DNA of 64,000 nt from an uncultured Rheinheimera sp. (GCA_966252055.1 CBINNO010000003.1:396-64395); one strand, 5' to 3'. Shown: positions 1 through 27,520, counted from the first letter of the stretch. The notes: a model not told the origin generated them from the letters alone. Translations and numbers: made by a program.

Positions 1-2913
1 TGCTGCGATATTGCTCAGGCCGCTGATAGCGGTCTGTTCCAGGGCGATAGTCTGGAGCTGTGGAAAACTCTGACTGATATGGGCAAAACTGGCCTGTGTC
101 AGCGGGTTTGCCGACAGATTGAGATAGGTAAGCCCGGAATGACTGAAAGTTAACAGTGTACTGTCGGTGAGGCCCTGACCGCGCAGCATGACATTTTGTA
201 GTTTACTGAGCTGATTAAAGCCGGCCAGATTTTGGACCGCTTGTGCCAAAGTTGCGGTACCAGACACATTCACAGTGGTCAGGTTTGTCATATGGCTGAC
301 GCCTGCCCAGTCCAGAATATTGGCATTGCAGTACAGATAGGTCACGTTGGTAAAAGTGCCGTAGCCACTGTCGGTCAGGCATTTTCGTAAGGACGCATCC
401 GGCACTGTCGTGGCGTTGATTGCCAGCTGCCCGCAGCTGACCGGCAATATGAATCTGCTTTGATTGGCGTGGTTACGCAGGGTGTCAATCTGTGCGCAGT
501 CAATGGCAAGCTGACCTTGCAACTGCAGGCTTTGGAACTGACCGGCTGCTTTAATCAGCTCGCTGATATCTCTGACGACCGGGCTTTTGTTGGTTGTCAT
601 ATACAGGTACTGCAGGGTGTTTGGCACCGTGAAATCGGGGAATTTTACCGGCAGATTATTATCCTGCAGATTCAACCAGAACAGTTGTTGCAGGCTGCCG
701 AGCACGCTGTAGTCCGATAGGGCGCTGTTATTGTATAGCGACAGCATAGTCAGATTCGGCAATGCGCTCAGATGACTGATATCGGTCAGTGGTGTTGTTT
801 CAGCATACAGGTTTGTCAGGGCTGTTGGGTTTTGCAGCGCACTGACGACGGACGACAAACTGGTCAGTTTAGTCATGCTGAGGTTTAAGTAATTCAACTG
901 TGCTGACAGGCTGAGACCACTTAAACTGCCGATGTTGTGACCGCCAATATCCAGTGAGCGCAGATTCGGCAACTGGTTCAGGAAGGTGAAATTGTTCGCT
1001 TGTGTGCTGCGGATGTAGAGGTGCTGCAGCGTGGTGGCGCCGCTAAGCCAGCTGAAATCATTAATAGCATTAGAGCTCAGGGTCAGTTCCTGTAAGGTGC
1101 CAAGCAGTGGTTGCAGCACAGGGATGATGGCATTGGTCAGCTGATTTTGTCGCAGGTTTAATGCGCGCAGGGTGGCCGGATACTGAATATTGGCGGCGGA
1201 GTCCGTCAGCTGCTGCCCGGACAATTCCAGATCAGTCAGACTGCTGAGTTTTTCCAGTGGTTTGAGACTGCCCAGCCTCAGTTGCAATGCCCCTGGCGTG
1301 ATATCCAGCAGCTGCAGATTCTTCAGCTGTTCAATGCCGTCCAGTTGCTGCACATCCTGACAGCTCAGCTGCATGATATCTTCGACATAGGTGTCGGAAA
1401 AATCAGCGATACAGGCCTGTAACCGGCTGTCGGCGACCGTGATTTCTTCTGGCAATGTCTGAGTAACGCCACAACTGGCAGGCCTGCGTACTTGCGCGAC
1501 TTTGGATGCTATCTGGTCCAGCTCGTTGCATGGAATGCCGACCTGGCCTTGCAGGTCCAGTTCCTGCAAAGTGCCGGGCTGATTGATCAGGCCGGCAACA
1601 GATTTGATGCGGGCATAACTGTATGCCCACTGGGTGTATCTGGATAGATCCAGTATTTTTAACGATGCCGGCAGTACTAAGGTGCCCAGGTTGGCGCTGT
1701 TAGCGGTGTTAAACAGCCTCAGGCTGTAGAGCTTATTGAGTTTGCTGACAAAGCCGAGGTTGGTGATATTTGGTGTGCTGCCAATCACCAGGTGCATTAA
1801 GTTCGGCAGGCTCTCAATGGTCGCTTGATGGGCTGCGGTAAAATTTGCCCCATTCAGTGCCAGTGTCACTAACTGCTGGTGGTTGTTCAGTGCTGAGATA
1901 TCAATATCTTTGTGATTAAATTGCTCCAGTGTCAGGCTATTGAGTGCCGGTAACTGACTGATAAAATTGAGGTTGCTCAAATCATACAAATAAGCGTCAG
2001 CAATACCCGGATGGTTGAGCCCAGCGATAGCTGCCGGATTGCTGATATTCAGGAAGATACTGCGCAAGCCGCTGATTTGGTTCATCAATGCAACCATATC
2101 GGGCTTGTCACTGAGTTCATCATCGGAGTGGCGTAATGTCTCCAATTGATCAAGCGACGCCAGAATTTGCCAACCGGCAGTCACTTTTAAGCGGTGCAGG
2201 CTCAGGTGTTTCAACCCTGCAATATTGGATAAAAAGCTCAGGCTGCTGATTTGATATCTTTCTAAGGTCAAATCCCGTAAATGCGGCAGTTCAGTCAGTT
2301 CGCTGAGGCCACTGAGCGGTGAATTTGCGCTGGCGCCGCCGACATAAAACTGGCGCAGTTCAGTCAGCGCTTTCAGGCCGGTTAAATCACTGACCGCCGG
2401 TTGCTGATAATGATAAAAGCAATAAAGGCTGGTGATCTGGTCAACATACAAGAAACCGGCGCTATTGGCAGATTCAGTAAGACATTGTTTTAACTGGGGG
2501 TCGGTGAAATTCAGGCTGCTGAGCAAGACGCGGTCCTGCTGTGATGTGACAGTCAGCGCTTTGATCTTACCGGTCACAGAGGCTCTGGTCACACACTGAT
2601 CCGGCTTACCGCCGCTCAGCCGGCATTCGATTTGTTCGCCGGCAGCTGTCTGGTGGATGACGCGCCGCTCAGTGTGTTGCGTTTTAGTGGGGCTGACCGG
2701 AGGCTGCACCTTGGGGTAAGCATTCTGCAGCTCAATCGGCCTGCTGTCGGGCTTTGCTATTGTCGGTGCAAATGGAGACGGCAGGCCTGCCTTTCCACTG
2801 GCGAACAAAGGCGGTTGCTGCCCGGGCGTCAATGACTGTGGCGACTGCGCTTGCCGGGCCGTCGCGGTCAGAGACAGCAGTAAGAGGGAAACTGCCACAA
2901 CTTGCTTATTCAT
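1..2913 (-). CDS. Secreted multi-block internalin-like leucine-rich-repeat protein (3' end beyond left window edge, at least 971 aa)
   Basis: Missing from the ORF track because it has no stop in the window. Manual translation from ATG 2913 (SD AGGGAGG) gives signal peptide MNKQVVAVSLLLLSLTATA, Cys caps (FTDPQLKQCL, VADSRLQACI, VPDASLRKCL) and LxxLxLxxN repeats; the same frame still reads as LRR at base 1 (QLQTIALEQTAISGLSNIAA). Confidence 0.9.
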   Translation of the reverse strand, partial: MNKQVVAVSLLLLSLTATARQAQSPQSLTPGQQPPLFASGKAGLPSPFAPTIAKPDSRPIELQNAYPKVQPPVSPTKTQHTERRVIHQTAAGEQIECRLSGGKPDQCVTRASVTGKIKALTVTSQQDRVLLSSLNFTDPQLKQCLTESANSAGFLYVDQITSLYCFYHYQQPAVSDLTGLKALTELRQFYVGGASANSPLSGLSELTELPHLRDLTLERYQISSLSFLSNIAGLKHLSLHRLKVTAGWQILASLDQLETLRHSDDELSDKPDMVALMNQISGLRSIFLNISNPAAIAGLNHPGIADAYLYDLSNLNFISQLPALNSLTLEQFNHKDIDISALNNHQQLVTLALNGANFTAAHQATIESLPNLMHLVIGSTPNITNLGFVSKLNKLYSLRLFNTANSANLGTLVLPASLKILDLSRYTQWAYSYARIKSVAGLINQPGTLQELDLQGQVGIPCNELDQIASKVAQVRRPASCGVTQTLPEEITVADSRLQACIADFSDTYVEDIMQLSCQDVQQLDGIEQLKNLQLLDITPGALQLRLGSLKPLEKLSSLTDLELSGQQLTDSAANIQYPATLRALNLRQNQLTNAIIPVLQPLLGTLQELTLSSNAINDFSWLSGATTLQHLYIRSTQANNFTFLNQLPNLRSLDIGGHNIGSLSGLSLSAQLNYLNLSMTKLTSLSSVVSALQNPTALTNLYAETTPLTDISHLSALPNLTMLSLYNNSALSDYSVLGSLQQLFWLNLQDNNLPVKFPDFTVPNTLQYLYMTTNKSPVVRDISELIKAAGQFQSLQLQGQLAIDCAQIDTLRNHANQSRFILPVSCGQLAINATTVPDASLRKCLTDSGYGTFTNVTYLYCNANILDWAGVSHMTNLTTVNVSGTATLAQAVQNLAGFNQLSKLQNVMLRGQGLTDSTLLTFSHSGLTYLNLSANPLTQASFAHISQSFPQLQTIALEQTAISGLSNIAA

Positions 2914-3042
2914 GAAACCTCCCTGTCGCACGGGTTGAGACAGGCAGCGATGCCGTCAACAATGCGGTATCTTGCTGAAATGACCAAAGCTCCGGATAAA
3001 CGGAAGCTTCTGTTCCCTGTCGATGCATTCATGCGATGCGAC

Positions 3043-3108
3043 AATATAGAATGATTGCCGTGGTGTGCCTGCGACATTTTCCGGCGTTCGTGCGTCAATT
3101 TTGTGCAA
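3043..3108 (-). promoter_or_regulatory. Direct-repeat operator plus -10 box, copy A (upstream of LRR gene)
   Basis: Minus strand TTGCACAAAAT-TGACGC-N15-TGTCGCAGGC, then TATATT 22 nt after the second TGTCGC. Aligns with copies at 7520 and 10619. Confidence 0.7.
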
Positions 3109-3241
3109 CCGCAGTTTTTTTTGACGTGAGTTGCGATCGCATGCTGTATTTGTTCCTGAATTAGCAAGCGTCTGTATCCGTAGTCCCTGTTTGAATCATT
3201 GTCGGGTCAGGGCGGCGGTCAGCCTCGATGAGCGACACCCG

Positions 3242-6200
3242 TTATGCTCTGACGAGCTGCTGTTGTTTGCGATACTCAGCAGCGGTCGTTTGCAGCTGGC
3301 TGCTGAACTGACGCTGCATCGTTTTCACTGTGCCAAAACCACATTGTTCGCTGATCGACTCAATACTGGCGTGGGGCTGACTGGCCAGCAACTGGCAAGC
3401 TTGCTGCAGGCGGTAAGCGTTCAGCGCGTCAAGCACTGTCATCCCGATGGCGCTTTTGCACAAACGATTGAGTTGGGAGGTACTTTTATGAAAGTGGCTG
3501 GCCAGACTCTCTGCTTTGATGGTCGCATCCGGGTAGACGACCGCAAAGACGGCATCCAGTTTCAAGCGGAATGACTGATATTCATCGGCTGGCTGTCCGG
3601 CCGGCGTCAGCAGATTTTGGCGTACCCGGCTGGTCAGTTGCTGATATTGTCGCATGACGGCTGAGACGGCACTGAGTAACACTTTACCGCTGACCGCCTT
3701 GGTCAGGCAGAGGCTGGCCTGGATTTGATATCCCTGCAGCTGAATTTCTTCGCTTTGCAATGCTGTCAGCACAATGACAGGAATATGACTGGTTTGCATC
3801 TGAGATTTCAGTAGCTGGATTAACTTAAAACCGCTGTCCTGCTGTTCCATCATGACATCGGTCACTATAAGGTCTGGCAGGTGTGTGCTGGCAAGAGCAA
3901 AAGCACTGGCGACGTTTGCGGCGGTAAAACACTGATAGTGGGGTTGCAGCAGCGCCGCCAAATCTTCCCGCAATTGATCATTGTCTTCAACCAGCAGGAT
4001 GCTGCCGGCGGTCCCAGCCGAAGTCGCGGAAGCTTCCGGCAATGTCGGCCGGACAACTGGTACACAAGGCAACAGAGTGTCGAGGGGGCCTGCAGCGTTT
4101 GGAGTCGTCAGCTGCTGCTCGTCACCAAGTGGCAGACAAACGACAAACTGGCAACCCCGGCCAGGTTCACTGTGCAGGGTGACAGTACCGCCAGCGTCTT
4201 CGACGCAGGTTTTCACCAGAAACAGCCCTTCACCACTGCCGGGGATATTTTCCTGTCCGCTGATTCTGTAGTGACGCAGAAACACCAAAGGCTGTTCATG
4301 CGGCGCAATGCCCGGGCCGTAATCACGTACGGAAAAATAAAGTTTGTTTGCGCGGGCGGTCAGTTCAATCTCAATAGTGTTTCCATCGTGGCTGTACTTG
4401 ATGGCATTGCTCAACAGGTTTGCGGTGACAAGTTCCAGTACGCCGGGTTGACCATAAAACGCGACACTGGCCAGTTGTAACCGGATCTCCAGCTGCTTTT
4501 CGCGGGCGTAGGGCAGGTAGCGCTGCACTTCCTGTTCGACAATCGGCTGGGCGGCAAGGTGTTGTCCTTCGCTGCTATGTGCCAGCCGTAATGCTTCGGC
4601 TTCAAGATGACGCTGCAGCAGCTGATGCAGGTCCTGGCAAGCCAGACTGGCACGCTCCAGGCAGCGCTGCATAGCGGGTTGCTGTGAACTTGTATCCGGC
4701 TGCACTGTTGCCGCGCTGAGCTGTCCGGCCTGTTCGAGCTGCAAGCGTAATCGCATCAGCGGTGTTCTCATTTCGTGGGCAGTGAACTGAAACTGAAGTT
4801 TCAGATTACGTGCCAGTACCGACTCACGGGCGATACCCTGTTCAATCCGCAGTTGTTGTTGTCGCTCTGTGCGGTCGCGCAGCGCTTTGTAAGCCCACAG
4901 CAACAGAACTGCGGTCAGGATATAAATCGCATAAGCAGGCCCGCTGAGCAGCGGGTGTGGCCGGATTTCAAAACTGAATAAAGCCTGGGGTTCGCTCCAG
5001 TGACCGTCGGGGTTGGCTGCTTTGAGCCAGAACTGATACTGGCCGGCAGACAATGCCGGAAAGCGGGCGCTGCGTTCTGAAACATATTGCCAGTCTTGTT
5101 GGGTACCCGCCAGACGGTAGGCGTAGCGCATTCGCTCCGGTGCCGCATAGTGCAGGCCGGTAAACCGCAATGTCAGCGCGTTCTGCTGATAACTGAGGCT
5201 GGCGAACGAGTCCGTTGGCAATGCTTGCTGATCGTTGACCTCGATGCTGCGCAGTTGTAACGCTGGGACCGCTGTGTTGTCCTGCACATCCTGGGGCCTG
5301 AAGCCATTCACGCCATTAACTCCGCCAAAATAGAACCGGCCTGAGGGGCCAAGGTGAGACACGCTGTAGTTAAATTCGGTTGATTGCAGTCCGTCTGCCA
5401 GCTGGTAGTGACGGATTTGTCCGTTCGCGGGGGTGAAACTGAAGATGCCATGACTGGATGCACACCACAAACGACCATTGTTGTCGCCCATCACACTGTA
5501 AATGACTTCGGTTGGTAACCCCTGCCGAACGCCGTAACGCTGCCATTCCGGCGAACTGCCTTGCCGCCAGGTCAGCCGGTTCAGTCCGCTTTCACGGGTG
5601 GCTACCCAATAAGTCTCTGCCGATGTTTGCCAGACACCATGCACCCAGTCGTGTCCCAGCGAGTTTCGGTTTTGTGGTTGATGCCGGAATTGGGTCAGTT
5701 GCCCGCTGTCAGGTGCCAGCCGTAACAGTCCCTGCTCACTGGACAGCCACAAGGCCCGGTCCCACGCCTGATAGATTTGCCAGATGCTGTTGCCGGCGAA
5801 AGCCGGATATTGTTCGGCGGAATACCAGTGCCTGATGCTTTGCAGATCTGGGTCGGCGCAGCCAATGCCCTGATTTGTGGCGAGCCACAGACACTCATCA
5901 GTGGCCAGCAGACTCAGCACTTCAGGCTGGCCCTTTGCCGTGGATGGCAGCAGGCCTTGCAACGGCAATGGCCTGAATTGACGTTCGGGTTCATCGAGCC
6001 ACAGTAGCCCTAAGCTGGTAGCGAGCACCAACAGGCCCTGACGACTGCGGGTGATTTGATGGATAGCCATACCCTGATTCTTTTGCAGTGGTAATGCATA
6101 CATCTCAGTGGTTGCTGTCGGGGCGCCGTCCGGCCCGAGCCGTTGCTTTTTCAGCACGGCGTCGTGACCTGTCCACAACCACTGTTGGCCCTGGCGCTGC

Positions 6201-7354
6201 TCTTCGAAAATACTGCGCACCCCACGGCCACCGATCGATTGGTCGCTGGCGAAACGCGGTGGGTTATAGTGCCAGAACTTGCGTGCGGTGGGCACCCAGC
6301 GCAGCAGGCCCGACTGTGAAGCTGAGAGCAGGACTGTGCCATCCCGGGTCTGATATAAGGTATCTAACCGACCGGTCAGTTCCCGCATATCCACGCTCAT
6401 CGGGCTGAAAGTATCCTGCTTTGCGTTGTAGCGAAACACCTGAGTGCCAGTGCTGACCAGCAGTTCATTGGCGGTATCGAGCATGCTGGCGACGCTAAAA
6501 AAACGGTCGTTTTGCACGTCAAGCGCAAAGGATTTCAGGTCGTTGAGCCGGATCAGCCCATCGCCAAACAGCCAGTGTCGCCCTTGTTTGTCCTGATAAA
6601 AAATCCTGCCACCGCGCAGCGCCTCCACGGCAGTGGCCTGCCGGGTGCCATGCTGTCGCATGACAGGCGAACCCTGCAACATGGACGTGCTGAAGTAGAG
6701 GGTGCCATCGGCCAGCTGGGTCCAGTCAATCACCGGGTAGCCGGTCAATACCGCGGTAAATTGTTGCATCTGTGCCGACCAGCGGTACAAGCCATTATCT
6801 GTGGCGACATACAGCTGATCTTGTACCACCTTCAGGCGGTTGATCATTGAAAATGGCTGGTTGGCGGCGACCATGATCGGCTCAAATTGGTCGGTTTGGC
6901 TGTTGTAGCGCCAGACGCCATGAGCGGCAGCGGCCCAGATGGTCTCGCCAAATTCGAGCATTGGATAAAAATGCCGCAGCGACTTTTCGGTCGCGGTGTC
7001 GTCCCGCAGATAATTGGCAAAACGACCACCGCCCAGATGACGGCTGATGCCATTCCAGGTGCTGATCCACAGCACGCCCTGGCGGGTTTCCAGCAGCGCA
7101 TTGACATAGTTGTGCGTCAGGGAGTCGGCTCTGTCCAGCTCGCGCATAAAGGTTTCGCTCTGATAGCCGTCGAATCTGACCAGGCCGGTGCCGGTGCCCA
7201 GCCAGAGGTAACCTGATTTATCCTGCAAAACCGTCGCAACAGAGCCTTGCTGCAGGCTCAGTGGAAACTTGTTGAAGTCATGAGTTTGTGCTGTCGCCTG
7301 TTGACACAGCCAAAGGCAAAGAACACGGATGATAAAAAGCCAGGTACTGCGCAA
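3242..7354 (-). CDS. Hybrid two-component sensor-regulator (beta-propeller + Y_Y_Y sensor, TM, HisKA/HATPase, receiver, AraC HTH), 1370 aa
   Basis: Signal peptide; Reg_prop repeats (LWLGTGTGLVRFDG, LWISTWNGISR); Y_Y_Y (YAYRLAG...YQFWLKAAN); TM AYAIYILTAVLLLWAY; H-box AHEMRTPL; N/G boxes NLLSNAIKY, DYGPGI, GSGEGL; receiver ILLVEDN...DLIVTDVMM; AraC ISEQCGF...F...EYRK. TTG start. Confidence 0.95.
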   Translation of the reverse strand: MRSTWLFIIRVLCLWLCQQATAQTHDFNKFPLSLQQGSVATVLQDKSGYLWLGTGTGLVRFDGYQSETFMRELDRADSLTHNYVNALLETRQGVLWISTWNGISRHLGGGRFANYLRDDTATEKSLRHFYPMLEFGETIWAAAAHGVWRYNSQTDQFEPIMVAANQPFSMINRLKVVQDQLYVATDNGLYRWSAQMQQFTAVLTGYPVIDWTQLADGTLYFSTSMLQGSPVMRQHGTRQATAVEALRGGRIFYQDKQGRHWLFGDGLIRLNDLKSFALDVQNDRFFSVASMLDTANELLVSTGTQVFRYNAKQDTFSPMSVDMRELTGRLDTLYQTRDGTVLLSASQSGLLRWVPTARKFWHYNPPRFASDQSIGGRGVRSIFEEQRQGQQWLWTGHDAVLKKQRLGPDGAPTATTEMYALPLQKNQGMAIHQITRSRQGLLVLATSLGLLWLDEPERQFRPLPLQGLLPSTAKGQPEVLSLLATDECLWLATNQGIGCADPDLQSIRHWYSAEQYPAFAGNSIWQIYQAWDRALWLSSEQGLLRLAPDSGQLTQFRHQPQNRNSLGHDWVHGVWQTSAETYWVATRESGLNRLTWRQGSSPEWQRYGVRQGLPTEVIYSVMGDNNGRLWCASSHGIFSFTPANGQIRHYQLADGLQSTEFNYSVSHLGPSGRFYFGGVNGVNGFRPQDVQDNTAVPALQLRSIEVNDQQALPTDSFASLSYQQNALTLRFTGLHYAAPERMRYAYRLAGTQQDWQYVSERSARFPALSAGQYQFWLKAANPDGHWSEPQALFSFEIRPHPLLSGPAYAIYILTAVLLLWAYKALRDRTERQQQLRIEQGIARESVLARNLKLQFQFTAHEMRTPLMRLRLQLEQAGQLSAATVQPDTSSQQPAMQRCLERASLACQDLHQLLQRHLEAEALRLAHSSEGQHLAAQPIVEQEVQRYLPYAREKQLEIRLQLASVAFYGQPGVLELVTANLLSNAIKYSHDGNTIEIELTARANKLYFSVRDYGPGIAPHEQPLVFLRHYRISGQENIPGSGEGLFLVKTCVEDAGGTVTLHSEPGRGCQFVVCLPLGDEQQLTTPNAAGPLDTLLPCVPVVRPTLPEASATSAGTAGSILLVEDNDQLREDLAALLQPHYQCFTAANVASAFALASTHLPDLIVTDVMMEQQDSGFKLIQLLKSQMQTSHIPVIVLTALQSEEIQLQGYQIQASLCLTKAVSGKVLLSAVSAVMRQYQQLTSRVRQNLLTPAGQPADEYQSFRLKLDAVFAVVYPDATIKAESLASHFHKSTSQLNRLCKSAIGMTVLDALNAYRLQQACQLLASQPHASIESISEQCGFGTVKTMQRQFSSQLQTTAAEYRKQQQLVRA

Positions 7355-7519
7355 AGTGGTTCACGTCCGTTGTAGAACTCATCATTTTAAATGTGCCAGA
7401 ACTGTCATAGCGCTGGCAAGGGGTTCAGGAGCCGCTGCCAGCACAGTGGTGGTCAGGTCAGCGGATTCAGGGACAGGCGTCCCGAATACGATTCCAGCTT
7501 TGCAATCGGGGTCTGTGTC

Positions 7520-7584
7520 TTGCGCAATTCTGTCCCTTGGATGCCGCTTTTTGTCGCAGCCATCAGTTTGTTCAGTGGTACATT
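7520..7584 (+). promoter_or_regulatory. Direct-repeat operator plus extended -10 box, copy B (upstream of 7739-10466 operon)
   Basis: TTGCGCAATTC-TGTCCC(7531)-N15-TGTCGCAGCC(7552), then TGG-TACATT (7579-7584) 21 nt after the second hexamer. Confidence 0.7.
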
Positions 7585-7738
7585 AAAGCCACGGCGAAAA
7601 GTCAAATCTGCCGGTCATGTCCGCATAAAAATGCAGCCGGAATGAGATGAGTAGTGAGATGTGCATTGTGCGCCAGGCCGGTCCTGTCGCATTGCTTTAT
7701 TGTCATGTTGCCGGCGCCAGCAAGAAAGGGAGACTCGT

Positions 7739-8452
7739 GTGCGAATCAGCGCAATCAACAGCTTTTGCGTTTTACTGGTTGCTGTACTGTTCAGTCAGGA
7801 CTTACTGGCTGAATCTGTTCAGGTAAAAAGCCGTGTCGACGGCCCCGGCATGCTGGAGCCCGCGCTGGCGGTGGTTGAACCGGGCGAGGCACTGCATTTG
7901 TTGATCAAGCCGGAGCCCGGTTACCGGCTGCGGCAAATATCCGGTTGCAACGGTCAGTATCAGGCCGGCATTTTTATTGTTGAGAACCCCAAATACAGCT
8001 GTGTGGTGGAGGCCAGTTTTGTGCCGGACGATGCCAGACTGGTTTCGCCAGCCCCGACACAAACCACGGGCAGCTCTGTCATCCAACAAACGCAAAATCC
8101 GGGGGCGCTGGCAACCGCCAAGACCGCCAAAAAAGCCGGCCGGATGCTGAAGTTTATTCTGGTGGCAAACCAGGTCATGCAACAGGTCAGCGTGACCAGC
8201 CGGGTGATTGCGGGCCTCGGTACCGTGCTGCCTGCGGTGCAACAGCTGCAAAAAAATCAACCGGCCACAGTCGTCGCAACGCCGGCCGCTGGTTATGCCA
8301 TTCAAAGCATATCGGGCTGCGGTCAACAAAGCGCCATCAGCCCGCTGCTGATCCCGTCTGTCAGCGCCAATTGCGTGGTCGACGTGATTTTTGTCCAGCT
8401 GAAAAATGCCCTGTGGGACCAATTTAACTGGGATCAGGCGACCTGGGGTTAG
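7739..8452 (+). CDS. Secreted protein with two divergent InlB B-repeat-like beta domains and C-terminal LWDQFNWDQATWG motif (237 aa)
   Basis: GTG 7739 after AAGGGAG; signal peptide MRISAINSFCVLLVAVLFSQDLLA; two repeats of PxPGYxxxxISGC...CVVEASF/CVVDVIF; paralogue at 26819. Confidence 0.85.
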   Translation: MRISAINSFCVLLVAVLFSQDLLAESVQVKSRVDGPGMLEPALAVVEPGEALHLLIKPEPGYRLRQISGCNGQYQAGIFIVENPKYSCVVEASFVPDDARLVSPAPTQTTGSSVIQQTQNPGALATAKTAKKAGRMLKFILVANQVMQQVSVTSRVIAGLGTVLPAVQQLQKNQPATVVATPAAGYAIQSISGCGQQSAISPLLIPSVSANCVVDVIFVQLKNALWDQFNWDQATWG

Positions 8453-8506
8453 TCCCCGGTCTGCTCAGTCAGGCAACTGCATGTTCAAACAAAAGCTGCG
8501 TCCAGC

Positions 8507-8530: not shown

Positions 8531-8579
8531 ACAATGACTGGCAGCACAGCAAAGCGCAGAAAAAAGGAAGATATCAACG

Positions 8580-10466: not shown

Positions 10467-10515
10467 CCAATCCACAGCCAACCACCGGTTGCCCTGCAGC
10501 CACAAGCAATCCCGC

Positions 10516-10537
10516 CATGGGCCTGTAAAGGCCCATG
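10516..10537 (+). terminator. Probable terminator or stabilising hairpin after 10466
   Basis: CATGGGCCT-GTAA-AGGCCCATG, 9-bp stem with GNRA loop; weak U-tract. Confidence 0.45.
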
Positions 10538-10618
10538 CATCTTCTGTACGGCTGTGCGTTTCGGCTATAGGGCCGATGTCGTCAGCAGTTGCACGACGAC
10601 GGGGCTGCAGCGCGCATC

Positions 10619-10683
10619 TTGCACAAAACTGTCGCCATCAGGCACGGATTTGTCGCAGCCGGAAACAGGTGGAATGTTAAATT
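10619..10683 (+). promoter_or_regulatory. Direct-repeat operator plus extended -10 box, copy C (upstream of lipase-SLH gene)
   Basis: TTGCACAAAAC-TGTCGC(10630)-N15-TGTCGCAGCC(10651), then TGT-TAAATT (10678-10683) 21 nt after the second hexamer. Confidence 0.7.
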
Positions 10684-10846
10684 AATGAGTGACTTACCTG
10701 AGTTGCTGTGGATTGCGCTATTCACAACAAGACGGGGACTTTCTGACTTTTCCCACGAAGTAACGCAACGGATGAGCTCAACTATGTCTGCGACTAACAA
10801 GAGTTTTCGTTTTACTGAATGTGCCCGATATGGCACACGGAACCCT

Positions 10847-15634: not shown

Positions 15635-15680
15635 GAAAGGGAAAGCACCACTTGTGCCAGTCCTGGTCAGCCACACTGTG

Positions 15681-19688: not shown

Positions 19689-19707
19689 CAAGGTTCTTTT
19701 TCAAAAC

Positions 19708-19740
19708 AAAACCGCGCATCACAAGCGCGGTTTTTTATTT
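19708..19740. terminator. Bidirectional Rho-independent terminator
   Basis: AAAACCGCGC-ATCACAA-GCGCGGTTTT followed by TTATTT, between convergent genes ending at 19688 (+) and 19786 (-). Confidence 0.9.
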
Positions 19741-19785
19741 TTTTGGGCGACGTCTGGCGCTGCGGTTTTCAACTGAGGAACACAA

Positions 19786-22479
19786 CTAGTCTTTTACGGG
19801 CGCCGTGGCTTGTATTGGCTCTGCTTCCTTTGTCGTTGCCTGATCTTTGGAGGGCGCTGTGCTGTGGACAAAGCTGCTTGCCTGCTGTGCCAGCAGCACC
19901 CACCACGGCAGGCCTTTTGATACTGGTTTCAGGCCGGCAGGGTCAATCCAGAACCGGACTTTGATGACCTGAGGGACGCCACCCTGCACTGTCACGGTCA
20001 GAGTCAGTGTCAGCCAGCCACTGACGCCTCTGGCCGGCTGGAAAATAAGCTGGCCGTTGCTGACACTGAGACGGCCGTATTGGCTGTCGCCAGCGTCGGC
20101 AAAACTGGCGGCGGTGAGCACGGCATCGTTGGTCATGCGAAAGCGCAAAGCTGAGTCCGCGCTGCAAAGTTCCGGCAGCGCTATATTTGTGACAGGCAGT
20201 GTAAGGCGTAGTGTTTCCAGCGCCTCGCAACTTAAATGGCTGTTGCCAGTCAGGTCTAACTGATATAGCTGAGTCATTGGATGTAACAGAGACAAGTCCT
20301 GAATGGCAGAATACTGTAGCCCAAGAGACAACAGTTCTTTATTGAGGTTGCTCAGTAAGGTGAAATCGGTCACCCCGCTGCCGATGAGCGAAAAATAGCG
20401 CAGTGTTGGCAATCTGGTCTGGATCTGGTTCAGCGACATGAAGCCGGCGTGGCGGATCTCAAGCTGCCTCAGTTTGTCCAGATGGTGGAGGGGGCTATAG
20501 TCCTGCAGGGCCCGGTTATCTGCTGCAATGAGCAACAGATGCTGCAAATTGCTGGCAGCTGCAATACCTTCCAGGCTGTCCAGCGTTGCTGAATCTATGA
20601 TCAGGCTGGTAAGGCTGGCCGGCTGAGGCAGCAACGCCAGCACTTGTCCGGCATTGCGAATGGCCTGCCCTGATAGTTCTAAACTGCTGATTTGGGCCGG
20701 CAGCCTGACGCCATGCAGCTGCTCCGGGGTAGCGGGTTGCAGTGCCAGAGCAATTGTTTTACTGCCCAGCGTATGCAGCGGTTTGTAGTCAGTAATATGC
20801 GAGTTGCCCAGCAGGCCGATATTTTCAACATTGAGCTGCGAAATATTCGTCAGGTCATTGATTTGATTGTCCGATAACACGACTTGTCGAAGCCAGGGAA
20901 ATGCTGTGGTGATCTGGGCGAAACTGGCTTGTGTCAGCAGATTTCCGGGTAAAATAAGATTTTGCACCACCCTGCCGCTCAAGGCCTGTATCGTCTGATC
21001 TGTCAGCCCTTGTCTGTGCAATGCCAGGAAAGTCAGGTCCTGCAATTGCGCAAACTCTGCCAGGTTAAGCGCCGGACTGGGGGTTTCTTGGTTACCGCTG
21101 ACGAACAGCCGCGTCAGTTTGCTCAGATAGCGGATCCCTTGCCAGTTATGCACGTTGCCCTGACAGGACAGCGCATAGACCGAGTTGAGTCTTTTATAAC
21201 CCTTCTCTGCCAGGCACTGGCGCAGCACGGGGTCTGGTACTGTGGCGGCACTGAGCAGTTTTTGCTCGACACCACAGGTCTGCGGCAGCCTGAAAGCCGC
21301 ATGATTGGGGTGATTGCGAAGTGTTTCAATTTGTGCACAGTCGATCGTCACTTGCTCGCTGAGATCTAATCGCTTCCATTGCGCCGCCATGTTGACGATA
21401 TCACCGATATCCACCACGGTGGCATCCTCATGCCAAAAGGCGGGGATGTACAAATATTTCAGCGTCGCTGGCAGGACAAAATCCGGAAACTTTGTCGGCA
21501 GCAGGGCCCCACTGATATCCAAAGACTCCAGCTTGTTCAAATCTCCCAATATGCTGAAATCGCTGACTTTATTGAGCCCTTTGGCAACTAAATATTTCAG
21601 ATTAGGCAGTAAAGTTAAGGCTTGCAGGTCGGCAATTTCGGTAAAGCTGATGGTCAGCTGTATTAATTCCGTTGGGGCCGGCAATGCATTGATCAGTGTG
21701 CTCAGGTCGCTGATCGGGTTGTTAGGCAGCTCAAGGTACCACAGATTCGCCGGCAGTTTTGCGCCAGTTAACGACGTGATGTTGGCGTTGTCTAGCGTGA
21801 TTGAGATGAGGTTGGGCGGGAAAGTGATGGCCAGTTCGGCCTGGTCGATAAACAAGTCGGTGATGCTCAGGCCCCGAAGATGACTCAGCTGTTCAATCCG
21901 CTTGAGGTTGTAGAGACGCAGGCCGTACTGAGGTGAAGTTTTTAGGAGATAGAGGTACTTCAGGTTAGTCAGATGCTCAATACCGCTCAAATCGACCACG
22001 TTTAAACATGCCAGCGTGGTGATGTTTTCCAGCAATTCAATATTTGTGTTGCTGATGCATTCGCGCAGTTCAGGGTCAGCAAAGTCAACATCTGCCAGCG
22101 TGGTGCTGCTGGTGTGGCCGGGCTGGGCCATTGATTCAGTCAATGGTTCTTGCAGTGCCGGCAAAGGTTTGGCGTGCAGCTCAGTGACATGGCGGTCAAA
22201 TCCGGGCAGGCTGGCGGCAAGGTCCGCATAGAGCCGTGCAGAGGGCCGCCAGTGCGCCATGCTGCGTGAAGCCGCTTTGGCATTTGTTGTCGTCAGGTCA
22301 GCGAAATTGCTGGTTGTGGTATCGACCTGCGCAAAGTAGTCCGGTAAGCCGGGTTGAGACACCGCCTGCCACCAGACCAGCGGCTCAGCCGGAGCATGCC
22401 TGGCAAAGACGGCCATACTGAACAAGCCGGCGCACATGATGCCGGTGAAGATAGCGCTGCGGATAACCCTTTGATTCAT
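19786..22479 (-). CDS. Secreted multi-block internalin-like LRR protein with C-terminal Ig/cadherin-like domain and GLPWWV motif (about 897 aa)
   Basis: Start moved to ATG 22479 (SD CAGGGAG; signal MNQRVIRSAIFTGIMCAGLFSMAVFA). Caps VDFADPELRECI and VPDPVLRQCL; LRRs (LSGIEHLTNLKYLYL). Paralogous to the 1-2913 protein. Confidence 0.9.
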   Translation of the reverse strand: MNQRVIRSAIFTGIMCAGLFSMAVFARHAPAEPLVWWQAVSQPGLPDYFAQVDTTTSNFADLTTTNAKAASRSMAHWRPSARLYADLAASLPGFDRHVTELHAKPLPALQEPLTESMAQPGHTSSTTLADVDFADPELRECISNTNIELLENITTLACLNVVDLSGIEHLTNLKYLYLLKTSPQYGLRLYNLKRIEQLSHLRGLSITDLFIDQAELAITFPPNLISITLDNANITSLTGAKLPANLWYLELPNNPISDLSTLINALPAPTELIQLTISFTEIADLQALTLLPNLKYLVAKGLNKVSDFSILGDLNKLESLDISGALLPTKFPDFVLPATLKYLYIPAFWHEDATVVDIGDIVNMAAQWKRLDLSEQVTIDCAQIETLRNHPNHAAFRLPQTCGVEQKLLSAATVPDPVLRQCLAEKGYKRLNSVYALSCQGNVHNWQGIRYLSKLTRLFVSGNQETPSPALNLAEFAQLQDLTFLALHRQGLTDQTIQALSGRVVQNLILPGNLLTQASFAQITTAFPWLRQVVLSDNQINDLTNISQLNVENIGLLGNSHITDYKPLHTLGSKTIALALQPATPEQLHGVRLPAQISSLELSGQAIRNAGQVLALLPQPASLTSLIIDSATLDSLEGIAAASNLQHLLLIAADNRALQDYSPLHHLDKLRQLEIRHAGFMSLNQIQTRLPTLRYFSLIGSGVTDFTLLSNLNKELLSLGLQYSAIQDLSLLHPMTQLYQLDLTGNSHLSCEALETLRLTLPVTNIALPELCSADSALRFRMTNDAVLTAASFADAGDSQYGRLSVSNGQLIFQPARGVSGWLTLTLTVTVQGGVPQVIKVRFWIDPAGLKPVSKGLPWWVLLAQQASSFVHSTAPSKDQATTKEAEPIQATAPVKD

Positions 22480-22716
22480 CACGCGGTGAACTCCCTGTAC
22501 ATTAGTTTTTGTCCTCAGGTTTTGTCTGCTGGTTGCCCGGATGGCCCTGCTGAAAACACGGGCAGGAACAGGCCCCATGCCCACATTGTTGCTGTTTGAG
22601 AAACGTCCGTCAAAGCTTTTGTCTACTGCCAAAACGACCTTCAAAAAACCTTGCACAACCCCTGAACAAAGCCGCCAGCCGGGTGCATGACGCATCCCGG
22701 CGCCCGTTCAGGCTGC

Positions 22717-25700
22717 TTATTGCTGTGGCTGCGCCATTAACAGCAGTTGCAGCAGTCGGCTGTCTTTTTTGTTCAGCAGGATTTCAACGCTCGATTGCGC
22801 TGTGGCCTGATTGCCGCTGCTGTCGGTGCTGCTGAAATGGACTACTGTCACCCCGGGCAGGAACTTTTCCGGTGCGTCGTGGCTTACCACGACTGAGCTG
22901 TCAAAGTTATCGCTGGCGGTCACGCTGTTTAAAAACTGCTGGATACGCGGGTCTGTGCGGGCAATACCACTGCGGCCCGCTTTCAGCTGCAGCGGTGCCG
23001 GTACCTGGATCACCGGCGCGCTTTGATCGGTCAGATAAATCACCAGACTGGCGGCCGAGGTGTACCCATTTTGGTCGGTCGCTTCGAACAGCAGGATATT
23101 TTTACCGGGTTTGAGCCGGGCCGGCGTATGGACCTGACGAATAGTCAGTGGCTGATTAGCGAAATAGTCATGGGCCTTCAATTGACTTATCAGTTGTTGC
23201 ACCCGGCTGTCGGACAGACTCAGACCGTCTGGCCCTGGCGCAGGCAAAGTCACGGCTGCAGGGACGGTAAATTTAGGGCCGTAGGCGAAATTAACCAGCA
23301 TATAGACAGTACGGCTGGTGCTGTTGCCGGCCTGGTCGGTGGCGCTGAGCGTCAGCAGATGGGCGCCAGCGGCCCAGGGAGACTGATTGCTAAAACTGAC
23401 GTCAATATTGGCTGTCACCAAATCGGCCACGGTAAATTGCTCGATAAACTGATAGAACTCATAACTGTCGCTGGTGATCCCTGCGGTACTGTAGGCCGTT
23501 GCGACTGAGACGTCCGGCCCATTGATCACGGGCGCTGTAGTGTCCTGCACCCGTAACGTCTGATAGGCCACTGCAGTGTTATTGTCAAAATCGGTAGCCC
23601 GCCAATCAATCTGATGATCGCCGACTGCGTAGCTGCCTGTGGCAGTGCTCCAGGCCGGGATGCTGCCATCTTTGGCATCGGTGGCGGTGGGAGCAGTCAG
23701 CACAGCCTTAGTCTGAGGCCCGGTTGCTTCCATAGTGATGATGGGCAATGCCGCAAACACCGGTGCTGTGGTGTCGCCGGACTTACAACGTGAAGGCAGC
23801 TGGAAGCTGCGCAGCGGTATCAAAGCCCGCCAGGTGCGGTATGCGGAATCGCAGTCCAGCTGGCTGGCCTGGCTCAGGTAAACGTATTGCAGCCTGGTCA
23901 GCGTACTGAGTCCGTCGACAGTCAGCGGTACGCTGCTGCCAATCTGCAGATGGGTTAAATTGACCAGCGAGCTCAGTGGATTGAGGTCTGACAGATTGGA
24001 GGTTGTGATAGTCAAATTGGTCAGATTGTTCATTCCGCTCAGCCAGGTGGCCTGTTGCAGGTTGTCAGGGGATTGATAGTGATGACTGATATAAAGAACC
24101 CGCAGGTTGCTCAGTTGTGACAGTGGCTGGTAGCTGGCAATTTTGGTGTACTGGAGTTCGAGTTCCCGCAGGGCCGGCAAAGCAGCCAGCGGAGTCAGGT
24201 CGTTAAGTGTGTAGTTGTATAAGGTCAGCGCTGTCAATTCAGGCAGATTCGCCAGCCAGCTCAACGCAATACTGGCAGTGCCGGACAGCGTGACGTCCTG
24301 CAGTTGACGCAATGATGCCAGCGGGCTGAAATCGCTGATATTTTGACCGGAAAGATACAACCGGCTGATGTTGCTGAACTGTTCAAGGCCGGCTAACGAA
24401 CTGATACTGCCCAGTCCCGCGCAGTTATTGCCATATGAATAGGTACCAAACTCGGTCAGCTGCCCGGCGTAATGCATGGTTGGGTTTGCTGACTTAATCT
24501 GCTGCAGGCATTGTTTTAACACCGGATCTGTTACCTGCAGCAAGGCATCGCTGAAAGTCACCAGATTGCCCGGCTGATATTGACGGGCCAAACCATGCCG
24601 GATGGCATTGATGGCATAAGTTGCATCAGCGCCGTGTTCGTCATGCCGGTCGATACCACAAGGCTGGCCTTTGCATTGTTTGGCCGGGTTGGAGAACTGG
24701 TAGATTTTGCTCGCAGAAAAATAGCTTTCATAGGCCATCACCGTCGCAAAGCTGCGATCGACACCATAACCGCGGGCAAACGGCATGGAATAGCCAGTGT
24801 CGCCCTGGCGTTCTGAGTGTGCCAGCCCCATGTTGTGACCGGCTTCGTGGGCTAATACATAGTCTGAACAGGTGATATGCGTCAGACTGACCATGTAGTT
24901 TTTATTGTAGGAAAAACCACCGTTATTTGGACCGGTGGCGTACCAGCCCAAGCCGCAAATATTCGCGCTGGTCATCGGCGTCAGTAATGCGACCATATCG
25001 GCGCCTGCTTCGTAACGCCATTTATCCAGATCGGCAAAGGCGCCGGTTTTATCGGTCATTTCATCCAGCTGTGCATGACTCTCAGTGGCACTTAACGCAA
25101 CTTCCCGCATGGCGGCCAGCCGCATTTCGACAAAAACACCGCTGTCGCGATAAATCTGATTACTGACACTGACCAGGTGATAGAGCCGGGTTGCGATGTC
25201 GCCATTGTAAATGGCGGCCGCGGCAGGGCTGTACAGCATCAAAAAATCGATAGTGGCGATACTCTCATCGGTCAGCGGTGGATAAGTCTCGCCAGCCTGC
25301 ACTTGCTCATTGGCCTGAGGCTGCTTTTTCAGCTCAGGCGGCACCAATGCATCATCCTGACTAAAATCAAGGTCTTGCTGTAAGGTTGCTTCGGAAAAAA
25401 GTCTGGCTTCGCTATGCATGCCACGCACCACATAAGTGCCGTCGGCACTGACGATACGGGCAAAAAAACCTTTGGGTCCACGGGTGATCACCACCGGATA
25501 CTGTTCGCCATCCTGACGGATGTAACCGCTGAGGCTGACAATCTCTTTGGTATATTGTTTGACCGTAGTTATTTGCACTGCGACAGGGCCGCCGGGCAGG
25601 GCGAGCTGAACAGATTCAGCCGGTTGTACGGCGTCAATGGCGCTCAGGTCGAGGTTCAGTGACAGACCCTGTTGCTGAGCTTGCAGATGCCGCTCTGCCA

Positions 25701-25842
25701 GCGACTGATTGTCTGCACCTGTGCTTTGCTGGCCGAATGATGTGTCCTGCGCCGGTGTGATTTGCCAGAGTGTCTGACTGGCCCAGACACTCTGGCTGAC
25801 GACCGCCAGCCACATTATTGTCCCAGATAAAAATTTCAGCAT
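22717..25842 (-). CDS. Secreted M12B/reprolysin-like zinc metalloprotease fused to LRR block and three HYR-like domains (about 1041 aa)
   Basis: Start moved to ATG 25842 (SD AAAAGGAG; MLKFLSGTIMWLAVVSQSVWA). Pro-region; metzincin HEAGHNMGLAHS with Met-turn FATVMAY; LRR cap VTDPVLKQCL; DTTAPV...ATD repeats. Confidence 0.9.
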   Translation of the reverse strand: MLKFLSGTIMWLAVVSQSVWASQTLWQITPAQDTSFGQQSTGADNQSLAERHLQAQQQGLSLNLDLSAIDAVQPAESVQLALPGGPVAVQITTVKQYTKEIVSLSGYIRQDGEQYPVVITRGPKGFFARIVSADGTYVVRGMHSEARLFSEATLQQDLDFSQDDALVPPELKKQPQANEQVQAGETYPPLTDESIATIDFLMLYSPAAAAIYNGDIATRLYHLVSVSNQIYRDSGVFVEMRLAAMREVALSATESHAQLDEMTDKTGAFADLDKWRYEAGADMVALLTPMTSANICGLGWYATGPNNGGFSYNKNYMVSLTHITCSDYVLAHEAGHNMGLAHSERQGDTGYSMPFARGYGVDRSFATVMAYESYFSASKIYQFSNPAKQCKGQPCGIDRHDEHGADATYAINAIRHGLARQYQPGNLVTFSDALLQVTDPVLKQCLQQIKSANPTMHYAGQLTEFGTYSYGNNCAGLGSISSLAGLEQFSNISRLYLSGQNISDFSPLASLRQLQDVTLSGTASIALSWLANLPELTALTLYNYTLNDLTPLAALPALRELELQYTKIASYQPLSQLSNLRVLYISHHYQSPDNLQQATWLSGMNNLTNLTITTSNLSDLNPLSSLVNLTHLQIGSSVPLTVDGLSTLTRLQYVYLSQASQLDCDSAYRTWRALIPLRSFQLPSRCKSGDTTAPVFAALPIITMEATGPQTKAVLTAPTATDAKDGSIPAWSTATGSYAVGDHQIDWRATDFDNNTAVAYQTLRVQDTTAPVINGPDVSVATAYSTAGITSDSYEFYQFIEQFTVADLVTANIDVSFSNQSPWAAGAHLLTLSATDQAGNSTSRTVYMLVNFAYGPKFTVPAAVTLPAPGPDGLSLSDSRVQQLISQLKAHDYFANQPLTIRQVHTPARLKPGKNILLFEATDQNGYTSAASLVIYLTDQSAPVIQVPAPLQLKAGRSGIARTDPRIQQFLNSVTASDNFDSSVVVSHDAPEKFLPGVTVVHFSSTDSSGNQATAQSSVEILLNKKDSRLLQLLLMAQPQQ

Positions 25843-26156
25843 GATGCAGACTCCTTTTAATATGCCGGAACTGCTGCGCCTGTCAGCGCCGGTTCTGGTG
25901 GGCGAAAGCCCCTCAAACCCACTGGTGCAGCAGAGAAATACAGGCTTATGCTCGCTTATTTGTCTGTTGTTGTCATCTGATAAACAGTGGCCGCCGCGAC
26001 AGCGCAGATTCTGAGTGACAAGCATGGCAAAATCGGCGAGCATTCGCCGGCGTTGCGGGCCGTTTGGCCGCCTTATCTGCCCGGGTTGGGGCAGGCAATG
26101 GTGCTTGGCAGGTGGCCGCAATGGCAGAGCTGACATTGTATGACAGGGAGCTGAGG

Positions 26157-26690
26157 ATGAACGCCAAAACGATAATTGTTGGGATTTTCCTGTTAATGAG
26201 CGGATTCGTGCTGTATTTCTGGACTGCCGGATCACAGCAAGCGCTGGTGGCGCCAGTGCCTGTGTCCACGCCGGCGGCCAGCCCGGTGACTGAATCCTTG
26301 CCGGCAGTGTTACCCGGCGCTGCCGAGCCGTCAGCTGCGCCTGTCAGTGAGGTTGCGGCATTGCCTGACTCCACCGGAGCGCTGTTGTCACCGGACGATG
26401 AACCGCTGCAGCAAGACAGTGGTCCGGAAATTAATATAGGCCCGTTGATTGATCCGGAACACGATGATCCGAATTTGGGGTTGCCTCCATCTGAACCCAA
26501 AGAAATTGGCGAGTTGCTCGACCCGGAAACTTATATTCCGCCGGCACCGGCCAACGAAAAAGAAATCAATATTGGTCCGCTGTTGCCGCCACCCGGTGAA
26601 GACAGCGACCCCTGGCCTGAAGCCGCGCCGGAACAACCAAAAGAAATTGGCAAACCGATCGATGCCGGAGCTGAAGTGGAGCAACTTTAG
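26157..26690 (+). CDS. Membrane-anchored Pro/acidic low-complexity protein with IG-x-(I/L)-DP repeats (177 aa)
   Basis: ATG 26157 after GAGG; N-terminal hydrophobic anchor IIVGIFLLMSGFVLYFW; repeats EINIGPLIDPE, PKEIGELLDPE, EINIGPLLPPP, PKEIGKPIDA. Confidence 0.8.
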   Translation: MNAKTIIVGIFLLMSGFVLYFWTAGSQQALVAPVPVSTPAASPVTESLPAVLPGAAEPSAAPVSEVAALPDSTGALLSPDDEPLQQDSGPEINIGPLIDPEHDDPNLGLPPSEPKEIGELLDPETYIPPAPANEKEINIGPLLPPPGEDSDPWPEAAPEQPKEIGKPIDAGAEVEQL

Positions 26691-26818
26691 CTCTGAGTTC
26701 TGCGCCAGTGCAGCTGTCCTCAGCAACAGAACGGCCTGATTTGTATTCGGCCTTGCCCTTGACTACGCTTGCCTGACACGAGCGGGCGGAAAAAAGCACT
26801 GTGGTCGGCGGAGGGGTT

Positions 26819-27520
26819 ATGCGGGTATCTGTTTCATGTCTGCTGTGGCTGGGCATGGTGGCGTCACCGCTGGCAGTGAGTCAGGAAATACAGGTCAACA
26901 GCCGGGTCGAAGGCAGTGGTGAACTGCTCCCGGCTCGCGCCACGCTGGTGAGCGGCGAAGTGCTGCATGTGGCGATCAAAGCCGCTCCCGGATACCGGCT
27001 CAAACAAATCCATGGCTGCGATGGCCAGTATCAGGACAGCATCTTTATCACCGGCGCCGTGCGCTACTCCTGTGTAATTCAGGCCACTTTTGTGCCAGAT
27101 GCCGACAGGCTGCCGTCTGCGACTAACCCCGCGACCGAGGTCCAAACGTCACGTCCTCTGTCGTCTGACGCGCAGACGATGGCAGCAAGCAGCACACGGA
27201 AAAGCAATATCATCAAGTTTATCCTGGTGGCCCATCAGGTAAGCAAGATGGTGACAGTGACGGCCGGGATAAGCGCTGGCCTTGGCAGTATTACTCCGGT
27301 GCAACAGACGCTGCTGAAAGGCGAAAGTGCCAGCCTGCTGGTAACTCCTGCTGCGGGTCAGCGGGTGCTCAGCGTGACAGGCTGTGGCCTCAATACCAGC
27401 AACAGTGGTGTGCTGCAGACTCCTGCGCTCAGTGTGAACTGCCATATTTCAGTTAGTTTTGCCGCATTGGTGCAGGGGCTGTGGGACCAGTTCAACTGGG
27501 ATCAGGGCGCCTGGCAGTAA
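26819..27520 (+). CDS. Secreted two-domain InlB B-repeat-like protein with C-terminal LWDQFNWDQGAWQ (233 aa); paralogue of 7739-8452
   Basis: ATG 26819 after GGAGGGG; collinear similarity with the 7739 protein (QVNSRVEGSG vs QVKSRVDGPG; PGYRLKQIHGCDGQYQ vs PGYRLRQISGCNGQYQ). Confidence 0.85.
   Translation: MRVSVSCLLWLGMVASPLAVSQEIQVNSRVEGSGELLPARATLVSGEVLHVAIKAAPGYRLKQIHGCDGQYQDSIFITGAVRYSCVIQATFVPDADRLPSATNPATEVQTSRPLSSDAQTMAASSTRKSNIIKFILVAHQVSKMVTVTAGISAGLGSITPVQQTLLKGESASLLVTPAAGQRVLSVTGCGLNTSNSGVLQTPALSVNCHISVSFAALVQGLWDQFNWDQGAWQ

Follow-up and report, generated by a model that had tools for sequence, protein, structure and literature searches.

An exoprotein locus beside capsule genes in an uncultured Rheinheimera sp., with a hybrid two-component sensor, a repeated operator-like site and a C-terminal tail

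Gene content of the locus

The window analysed here is a 64,000-nucleotide stretch of DNA from an uncultured Rheinheimera sp. (GCA_966252055.1, CBINNO010000003.1:396-64395), with a GC content of 55-56 %. Its first 27.5 kb form an island of ten coding sequences, g1 to g10, which include a hybrid two-component sensor, three copies of an operator-like site, and a tail motif present in six of the encoded proteins. The left border of the island is the window edge, therefore the island may reach further. Domains were called from Pfam and NCBIfam, start codons were picked from the ribosome-binding site and the hydrophobic profile, and export signals were judged by eye (basic n-region, hydrophobic core, AxA-like site). 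By this last measure, all ten coding sequences begin with a signal peptide or membrane anchor, in agreement with the first-pass annotation of this DNA; g10 is the exception in having an N-terminal transmembrane (TM) anchor in place of a signal peptide.

The gene g1 (1-2913, minus strand) encodes an exported leucine-rich repeat (LRR) protein with three capped LRR blocks, the C-terminus of which lies past the window start, and is followed by the sensor gene g2 (3242-7354, minus). On the plus strand, g3 (7739-8452) encodes an exported protein with two B-repeats, an internal tail-like helix (~8129-8176), and a C-terminal WDQFNWDQATW (8411-8449); g4 (8580-10466) an exported right-handed beta-helix protein; g5 (10847-15634) an exported class-3 lipase with a long stalk, SLH-like and HYR modules, and a C-terminal tail; and g6 (15849-19688) an exported PPC-repeat/TSP3-like stalk with two B-repeats and a tail. 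A reading of the sequence places a bidirectional hairpin terminator (19705-19744) between g6 and the convergent g7 (19786-22479, minus), for an exported LRR protein with two capped blocks, a tail motif, and 35 extra residues. The product of g8 (22717-25845, minus) is an exported Mep72-like metzincin with LRR, four HYR-like modules, and a tail, and as g8 lies 22 nt upstream of g7 the two are probably one operon. Lastly, g10 (26157-26690, plus) encodes the anchored protein, which is acidic and proline-rich with repeats of the E-INIGPLIDPExDDPNLG and KEIGxxxDP types, and g9 (26819-27520, plus) an exported protein with two B-repeats, an internal tail-like helix (~27197-27241), and a C-terminal WDQFNWDQGAW (27479-27517).

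The modules called in the island are Lipase_3, PPC, Flg_new_2 (the B-repeat), HYR, LRR, and reprolysin/Mep72-like. An LRR N-cap, xD[PSA]xL[KRQ]xC[LI], is present three times in g1, twice in g7, and once in g8; the domain calls and these counts bear out the earlier claim that B-repeats, HYR modules, and LRR caps are common to the island proteins. The domain scan of the island found neither a glycoside hydrolase nor a TonB-dependent transporter. No tRNA was found in the window, no transposase or integrase domain among the scanned window open reading frames (ORFs), and no Rfam family, riboswitches included, in the window or its long leaders.

For g5, the Lipase_3 domain (PF01764) scores 82 bits against a cut-off of 22, GHSLGG corresponds to the GxSxG nucleophile elbow, and the protein matches the Rhizomucor and Thermomyces lipase structures (E 5e-11). 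The GC content is 0.47-0.49 over the body of g5 (10000-14000), against approximately 0.55 around it, and g5 is missing between the g4 and g6 orthologues of a related contig, L090. This gene looks like a recent insertion, yet it bears both the operator-like site and the tail. The catalytic domain of g8 contains HExxHxxGxxH and matches the Mep72 model NF052434 over residues 1-230 (E 7e-55), although at 187 bits, from the catalytic domain only, it falls far short of the 645 required for an equivalog. For P0007, a protein identical to g8, the precomputed Pfam list places before the catalytic domain a BamI_lipocalin domain (PF27177) that was not reported by the local Pfam copy; the g8 protease may carry an inhibitor-like N-terminal domain. 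The sequence of g4 has no match in the PDB, and its orthologues are in L090 (50 % identical, beside a g3-like gene) and L002 (30 %, beside a glycosyltransferase). The g6 orthologue in L090 is 60 % identical. Exact-sequence look-ups of g9, g4, and g2 with the chosen start codons gave no match.

Directly after g10-g9, genes on the same strand (27616-37469) open a polysaccharide locus (27616-49655) encoding GT4, GT2, and GT29-like glycosyltransferases, a PL14 lyase, GDSL and AlgX-like acyl-modification proteins, and kpsC, D, M, T, E, and S (41681-49655). The claim that capsule genes adjoin the island in the absence of mobility genes is thus upheld within the scans described above. KpsM scores 134 bits, the KpsE family 286 bits, and KpsS 246 bits; KpsC has two Capsule_synth halves (E 5e-88), KpsD has Poly_export and SLBB domains, and KpsT is an ABC_tran protein. 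The ABC-transporter-dependent kps gene set appears complete at the level of families, all scores being under the equivalog cut-offs. The match of KpsD to the PEP-CTERM-system exporter model is weak (63 bits against a cut-off of 180). Within the capsule region, a GT29 (sialyltransferase-family) glycosyltransferase gene (39622-40572, minus) is a hint that the polymer contains a sialic-acid-like or Kdo-like sugar.

Past kpsS (49520-60919) are genes for a short-chain dehydrogenase/reductase (SDR), an LtaS/sulfatase-family membrane protein, a BioF/serine-palmitoyltransferase (SPT)-like acyltransferase (52128-53450, minus), and a type I polyketide synthase (PKS) of 2483 aa with the organization KS-AT-DH-ER-KR-ACP (53468-60919, minus); these genes may encode a pathway, joined to the capsule locus, for an amino-lipid or a lipid anchor. 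At the right end, an amidohydrolase ORF (61081-63264) and an ABC-2 permease ORF (62898-63842), both minus, overlap by approximately 370 nt as listed, the true start of the amidohydrolase probably being further downstream. The same pair also flanks the polysaccharide locus of L087.

A hybrid sensor and an operator-like site

In the g2 protein, Reg_prop propellers (E 8e-14) and Y_Y_Y (E 1e-11) are preceded by an N-terminal hydrophobic signal or anchor and followed by a second TM segment. The kinase portion has a HATPase_c domain (E 3e-22), a weak HisKA match (E 0.008, under the cut-off), and an H-box, FTAHEMRTPL; the PhoR and PnpS models align over residues 859-1075. Response_reg (E 3e-16) and the AraC-type HTH_18 (E 3e-16) complete the same polypeptide. 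Judged by its domains, g2 has every feature of a hybrid two-component system (HTCS) that sequence can reveal. Among species-representative genomes, it is matched best over its full length by Bacteroidota proteins, at 23-25 % identity; that scan found no orthologue, only Bacteroidota and other proteins at 21-37 % identity. An orthologue that is 46 % identical is present in a related contig, L089.

A 40-bp element, TTGCRCAA-N2-YTGNC-N17-TGTCGCAG, occurs three times in the 64 kb and was first noticed through an inverted-repeat match. Site A (3069-3108, minus) faces g1 and lies 156 bp before its ATG, with a TATATT -10 box approximately 20 nt downstream; site C (7520-7559, plus) faces g3, 180 bp before the start, with TACATT 19 nt downstream; and site B (10619-10658, plus) faces g5, 189 bp before the ATG, with TAAATT approximately 20 nt downstream. 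The common operator claimed by the first-pass annotation at three sites is therefore exact, in front of g1, g3, and g5. No further match with three or fewer mismatches is found in the whole 64 kb, against 0.08 expected, a test that is partly circular as the pattern was derived from the same three sites. Individually, the 8-mers TTGCRCAA and TGTCGCAG are rare in the window (nine and seven occurrences). L089, the contig that also encodes the sensor orthologue, has a fourth copy with three mismatches, 183 bp ahead of its g1 orthologue. Stretches of DNA near the L090 g3-like and L089 g10-like genes resemble the operator only loosely and were not counted.

The element contains two direct repeats, YTGNCGC and TGTCGCA, spaced by 21 bp or two helical turns, and a TAnnTT hexamer is found 19-20 nt past the element in all four copies (the three window sites and L089). 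The three sites thus have the layout of AraC/XylS-type activator sites in which the promoter-proximal repeat abuts the -35 region, a geometry that would be expected for the output domain of g2.

Window DNA is present in rhizosphere, freshwater, soil, and wastewater metagenomes. Two wastewater RNA-type libraries contain contigs over g1, g3, g4, and parts of g5-g8 and g10, with none over the 4-kb g2 and few over the glycosyltransferases. One of these contigs starts at 7601, 42 nt after operator C, which agrees with a start site just past TACATT. In addition, g4 and g6 come after g3 and g5 past hairpins without T-runs and the RNA-library contigs span the g5-g6 gap, therefore g1, g3-g4, and g5-g6 are the likely transcription units.

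The C-terminal tail, two small families and related loci

The tail consists of a basic cluster, then 5-14 uncharged residues, and a polar Q/P end, and exists in two flavours. The R-LLxLLLMAQP flavour closes g5 (KPRKSRMMKIILLSQPQSP, 15575-15631) and g8 (KKDSRLLQLLLMAQPQQ, 22720-22770). The G-LPWWVL flavour closes g6 (KTRTGLPWWVLTAAQPAN, 19629-19685) and is found in g7 (KGLPWWVLLAQQ; the GLPWWVLLAQQ tail, ~19885-19929), where it is followed by the 35 further residues. Past a disordered linker, g3 and g9 hold RMLKFILVANQ and RKSNIIKFILVAHQ internally, both close to the g5 tail. A regular expression covering the two flavours matches g3, g5, g6, g7, g8, and g9 and none of the 22 other window proteins, confirming that a peptide tag is common to six island proteins, as had been claimed. 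The tail comes after four unrelated domain types: HYR, the B-repeat, a domain after LRR blocks, and Lcl_C.

The tail DNA of the convergent g6 (19644-19664) and g7 (19894-19914) is 90 % identical, forming inverted repeat I22, which suggests recent copying or gene conversion of the tail. The g7 extension (19786-19890) is rich in S/T/A/P/K/E, and the g7-like protein of L090 stops 8 residues past the motif; the extension may be due to a lost stop codon or may be a variant use of the tail.

Tails of this kind are also present outside the window. The g8 orthologue P0008 (47 % identical) ends in KRQNRLLKLLLMAPGQ, the LRR protein of L089 (a g1 orthologue, 41 % identical) ends in KKRKGLPWWVIAPKAA, and LPWW-type tails close three L090 proteins. 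In L083, from another organism, an S8 protease ends in KRRKSRLLLLIMSMQKNLP and a reprolysin/B-repeat protein in RKRRRLPFWLFALPQN. When the last 110 residues of g6 were used in a full HMMER scan, at least 10 representatives of 50 %-identity clusters were identified in which a B-repeat is combined with [KR]xGLP[WVL]W... no more than 12 residues from the end. In metzincin-LRR homologues from Thalassotalea and Colwellia (P0014-P0029), the position of the tail is occupied by GlyGly-CTERM. A different short hydrophobic tail, SG[GS]LLLIL[SA]xE..., ends several reprolysin/B-repeat proteins of L091 (2507-17301) and L092, from another organism, and the use of short, non-canonical C-terminal tails behind B-repeats may extend more widely.

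In AlphaFold models of g9 (with an 8-sequence alignment) and of the HYR module and tail of g8 (with 3 sequences), the motif is a separate helix of 12-17 residues, after or before a beta domain, predicted with moderate confidence (pLDDT, the predicted local distance difference test, 54-81). The tail was considered as the last beta-strand of the preceding domain and rejected on these models of g8 and g9; the reading as a canonical TM anchor was likewise discarded, given the length of the tail and the order of its charges. The NCBIfam sorting-signal models do not match the tails.

The proteins encoded by g3 and g9 are paralogues (43 % identical) of a family with only 6 clusters among 5.8 billion proteins, characterized by invariant Cys pairs and an invariant W-D-x-F-x-W-D-Q-x-x-W end; both have low-complexity S/T/A linkers just ahead of the tail motif. 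An alignment scan of metagenomes for this family returned one locus only, and a Foldseek search of the PDB with the g9 AlphaFold model gave nothing under E 0.01. The g10 family has 10 clusters among the same 5.8 billion proteins, and g10 has no Pfam or NCBIfam match. Relatives of g10 and g3/g9 always adjoin tailed proteins, the sensor, or glycosyltransferase strings. In L087 (10742-11261), the g9 homologue is split over two reading frames and was not called, and is probably a pseudogene; the g10 there is intact.

Genes of the island are also found together, in subsets, in at least five further lineages (40-60 % protein identity), the GC content of these lineages being 47-48 % against that of the window. 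The arrangement in L001 and L094 is as in the window, with g8 on the minus strand, then g10, g9, and glycosyltransferases. In L002, L087, and L088, a g4-like gene, a 1282-aa glycosyltransferase, a heparinase II/III-like gene, and further genes are followed by g10, g9, more glycosyltransferases, and then the amidohydrolase/ABC flank seen at 61-64 kb of the window. L093 has g10 and then GT4. In L083, g10 comes after genes for the tailed S8 protease, an LRR/M66 protein, and the tailed reprolysin and before those for giant glycosyltransferases, 15 and 77 nt separating it from its neighbours. In L089, LRR and sensor genes on the minus strand precede g10, a g3/9-like gene, and a TSP3 protein gene, and in L090 a tailed LRR protein is encoded with g3-like, g4, g6, and g7-like (minus) genes and no lipase. 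The first-pass annotation regarded the island as an integrated system; comparison with these relatives supports this in that the subsets are linked rather than scattered, and does not in that the cargo varies, as in L090, where the lipase is absent.

A secreted, Cys-rich protein of 122 aa with no Pfam match is encoded on the minus strand in four relatives (L002, 8778-9146; L087, 9368-9736; L088, 6138-6506; L089, 3-242), where it adjoins g10 or the LRR gene. It has no homologue in the window, and its gene could lie to the left of g1, past the window edge.

Interpretation and comparison with known systems

The region is best read as a lineage-restricted exoprotein locus in which a regulatory layer is coupled to a layer of cargo and its handling. 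In the mechanism proposed, g2 would sense a ligand, probably a glycan, in the periplasm, and its AraC-type domain would most likely bind the 40-bp site, with the proximal repeat abutting the -35 of the TAnnTT promoter. In the presence of this ligand, g2 would activate g1, g3(-g4), and g5(-g6). The cargo, made up of the class-3 lipase, the Mep72-like metzincin, the PPC/TSP3 stalk, and the LRR proteins, would be Sec-exported and then, after secretion, kept at the outer membrane or capsule by the tail. This could take place by interfacial insertion together with charge pairing with an anionic polysaccharide or lipopolysaccharide, or through binding to the small, co-conserved g10, which is membrane-anchored with acidic repeats, or to g3/g9. 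That g1, g3-g4, and g5-g6 are a sensor-controlled regulon, that the tailed proteins belong to a wider exoprotein family, and that the tail serves to retain or dock its bearers at the capsule or outer membrane, perhaps by way of g10 and g3/g9, is a combination for which we judge the case to be evenly balanced. It is possible, but rather doubtful, that the tail, g10, and g3/g9 make up a new sortase-free C-terminal retention system by which the capsule or outer membrane holds secreted enzymes and LRR adhesins, placed under a glycan-sensing, Bacteroidota-type hybrid regulator. Display through the capsule and attack on algae or microbes, both raised by the first-pass annotation, are speculation.

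A number of observations weigh against a regulated retention system. The operator has no copy before g4, g6, g8-g7, g10, or g9, leaving g7-g8 and g10-g9 without a site, nor did position weight matrix and mismatch scans find copies in L001, L002, L083, L087, or L090. Of the claim that the whole island is sensor-controlled, what stands is that the site geometry suits the g2 output domain; the site itself is confined to g1, g3(-g4), and g5(-g6). In most relatives, g10/g9 and g4 adjoin polysaccharide genes and not the sensor. The RNA-library contigs, being sparse assembler output of low depth that may contain DNA, weakly support transcription in situ. The tail fits no proven sorting mechanism: it is shorter than a membrane span, its basic residues are on the wrong side for a stop-transfer anchor, and there is no sortase-like enzyme, type II secretion system, or other sorting gene in the window or the flanks of the relatives. 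Furthermore, HYR plus tail of g5 and g8 are homologous as a unit (40 % identical, E 4e-17), as are B-repeat plus tail of g6 and P0034, therefore part of the sharing may be plain module duplication.

These unit homologies also favour an explanation in which the region is a variable secretome hot-spot with no common mechanism and the tail is the terminal helix of shuffled or duplicated modules, with no role in sorting or anchoring. The near-identical tail DNA of g6 and g7, which suggests recent copying, the cargo differences among relatives, the apparently recent arrival of g5, and the absence of a processing enzyme close by all point the same way. However, four unrelated domain types precede the tail, it lies within 12 residues of the C-terminus in those 10 or more clusters, GlyGly-CTERM takes its position in homologues, and in several lineages tailed proteins are repeatedly encoded beside g10 and g3/g9, both very rare. 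The hot-spot explanation is considered unlikely.

It is equally improbable that g10, g9, and g4 are accessories for polysaccharide assembly or modification belonging to a capsule or exopolysaccharide operon, with only g1-g6 as a sensor regulon that resembles a polysaccharide utilization locus, a foraging set from which enzymes are freely released. In its favour, g10-g9 are on the same strand and 96 nt ahead of the first glycosyltransferase gene; g10 is found before or within glycosyltransferase strings in L002, L087, L083, and L093; the g4 homologue of L002 adjoins a glycosyltransferase; and HTCS of g2's architecture govern glycan and polysaccharide utilization loci in Bacteroides (PMC3243724). 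However, in L089 g10 and the g3/9-like gene are directly beside the sensor with no glycosyltransferase in the next 4.4 kb, g3, the paralogue of g9, has an operator-bearing promoter next to the sensor, both g3 and g9 hold the tail motif of the cargo, and the island lacks glycoside hydrolases and a TonB-dependent transporter.

Glycosylation of the tailed proteins by the adjacent glycosyltransferases, for example on the Ser/Thr/Ala-rich linkers of g3/g9, with the tail, g10, and g9 marking or handing over substrates instead of anchoring, is very improbable. In its favour, these proteins are repeatedly beside very large GT4-type enzymes (1282 aa in L002/L087, 1599 aa in L083) and the linkers lie right before the tail; against it, the full kps export set (KpsMTED, KpsC, KpsS) is typical of a lipid-linked capsule and there is no oligosaccharyltransferase domain.

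Surface retention of secreted enzymes in Gram-negative bacteria is understood for few pairs of tag and enzyme, the tags all being tripartite. The tail described here departs from that design, yet occupies the classical tag position in homologues and recurs with two tiny families and polysaccharide genes. Were it a retention signal, it would be a mechanistically different means of placing lipases, proteases, and adhesins on a capsule or outer membrane. Also rare is that sequence by itself allows a DNA site to be proposed for an HTCS-type regulator, as it does here, making the output of this regulator directly testable.

As in group 2-like kps capsule loci, the KpsC, D, M, T, E, and S genes of the window are grouped together and preceded by a serotype-like region of glycosyltransferases; the window locus differs in having g10-g9 in front on the same strand, and the SDR, LtaS-family, BioF/SPT-like, and 2483-aa PKS genes behind. 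With Mep72, the biofilm-associated metzincin of Pseudomonas aeruginosa (NF052434), g8 shares the catalytic domain match and the HExxHxxGxxH motif; its LRR block, its four HYR-like modules, and its tail are additions. The exported Listeria proteins InlA, InlB, and InlH are likewise built with capped LRR blocks and InlB-type B-repeats, whereas the island proteins score approximately 40-73 bits against internalin cut-offs of 1050-1600, are from a Gram-negative organism, and have no LPXTG or GW anchoring modules.

The Bacteroides HTCS (PMC3243724) likewise combine propellers and Y_Y_Y, TM, kinase, receiver, and AraC-type HTH in one chain and are encoded beside probable target genes. In contrast, the island has no SusC/SusD pair or glycoside hydrolase, its cargo being a lipase, a protease, and LRR and stalk proteins; the closest named homologues of the neighbouring proteins are from Alteromonadales; and a candidate binding site can be read straight from the DNA.

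Known C-terminal sorting signals are tripartite, with a motif, a TM helix of approximately 20 residues, and a basic cluster (PMC3237569, PMC6219818, bioRxiv 10.1101/2023.06.07.544157). The GlyGly-CTERM/rhombosortase, PEP-CTERM/exosortase, and MYXO-CTERM/myxosortase systems resemble the island in that a short C-terminal tag is carried by many otherwise unrelated exported enzymes and adhesin-like proteins; the tailed proteins, as PEP-CTERM proteins do, also adjoin exopolysaccharide genes, and GlyGly-CTERM is at the tail position in g8 homologues. In contrast to the tripartite signals, the island tail has its basic residues first, then 5-14 uncharged residues and a polar Q/P end, with no sortase-like gene nearby. 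It departs from the GlyGly-CTERM design in charge order, run length, and lack of an NCBIfam match, and no rhomboid-like protein is encoded in the 64-kb window or the short related contigs. Likewise, every tail lacks the PEP motif and the 64 kb has no exosortase domain, which places the tails outside PEP-CTERM. The overall kind, C-terminally tagged exoproteins beside exopolysaccharide genes under a local regulator, is known; new here are the design of the tail, the two small families of proteins, and an HTCS operator that can be read from the sequence.

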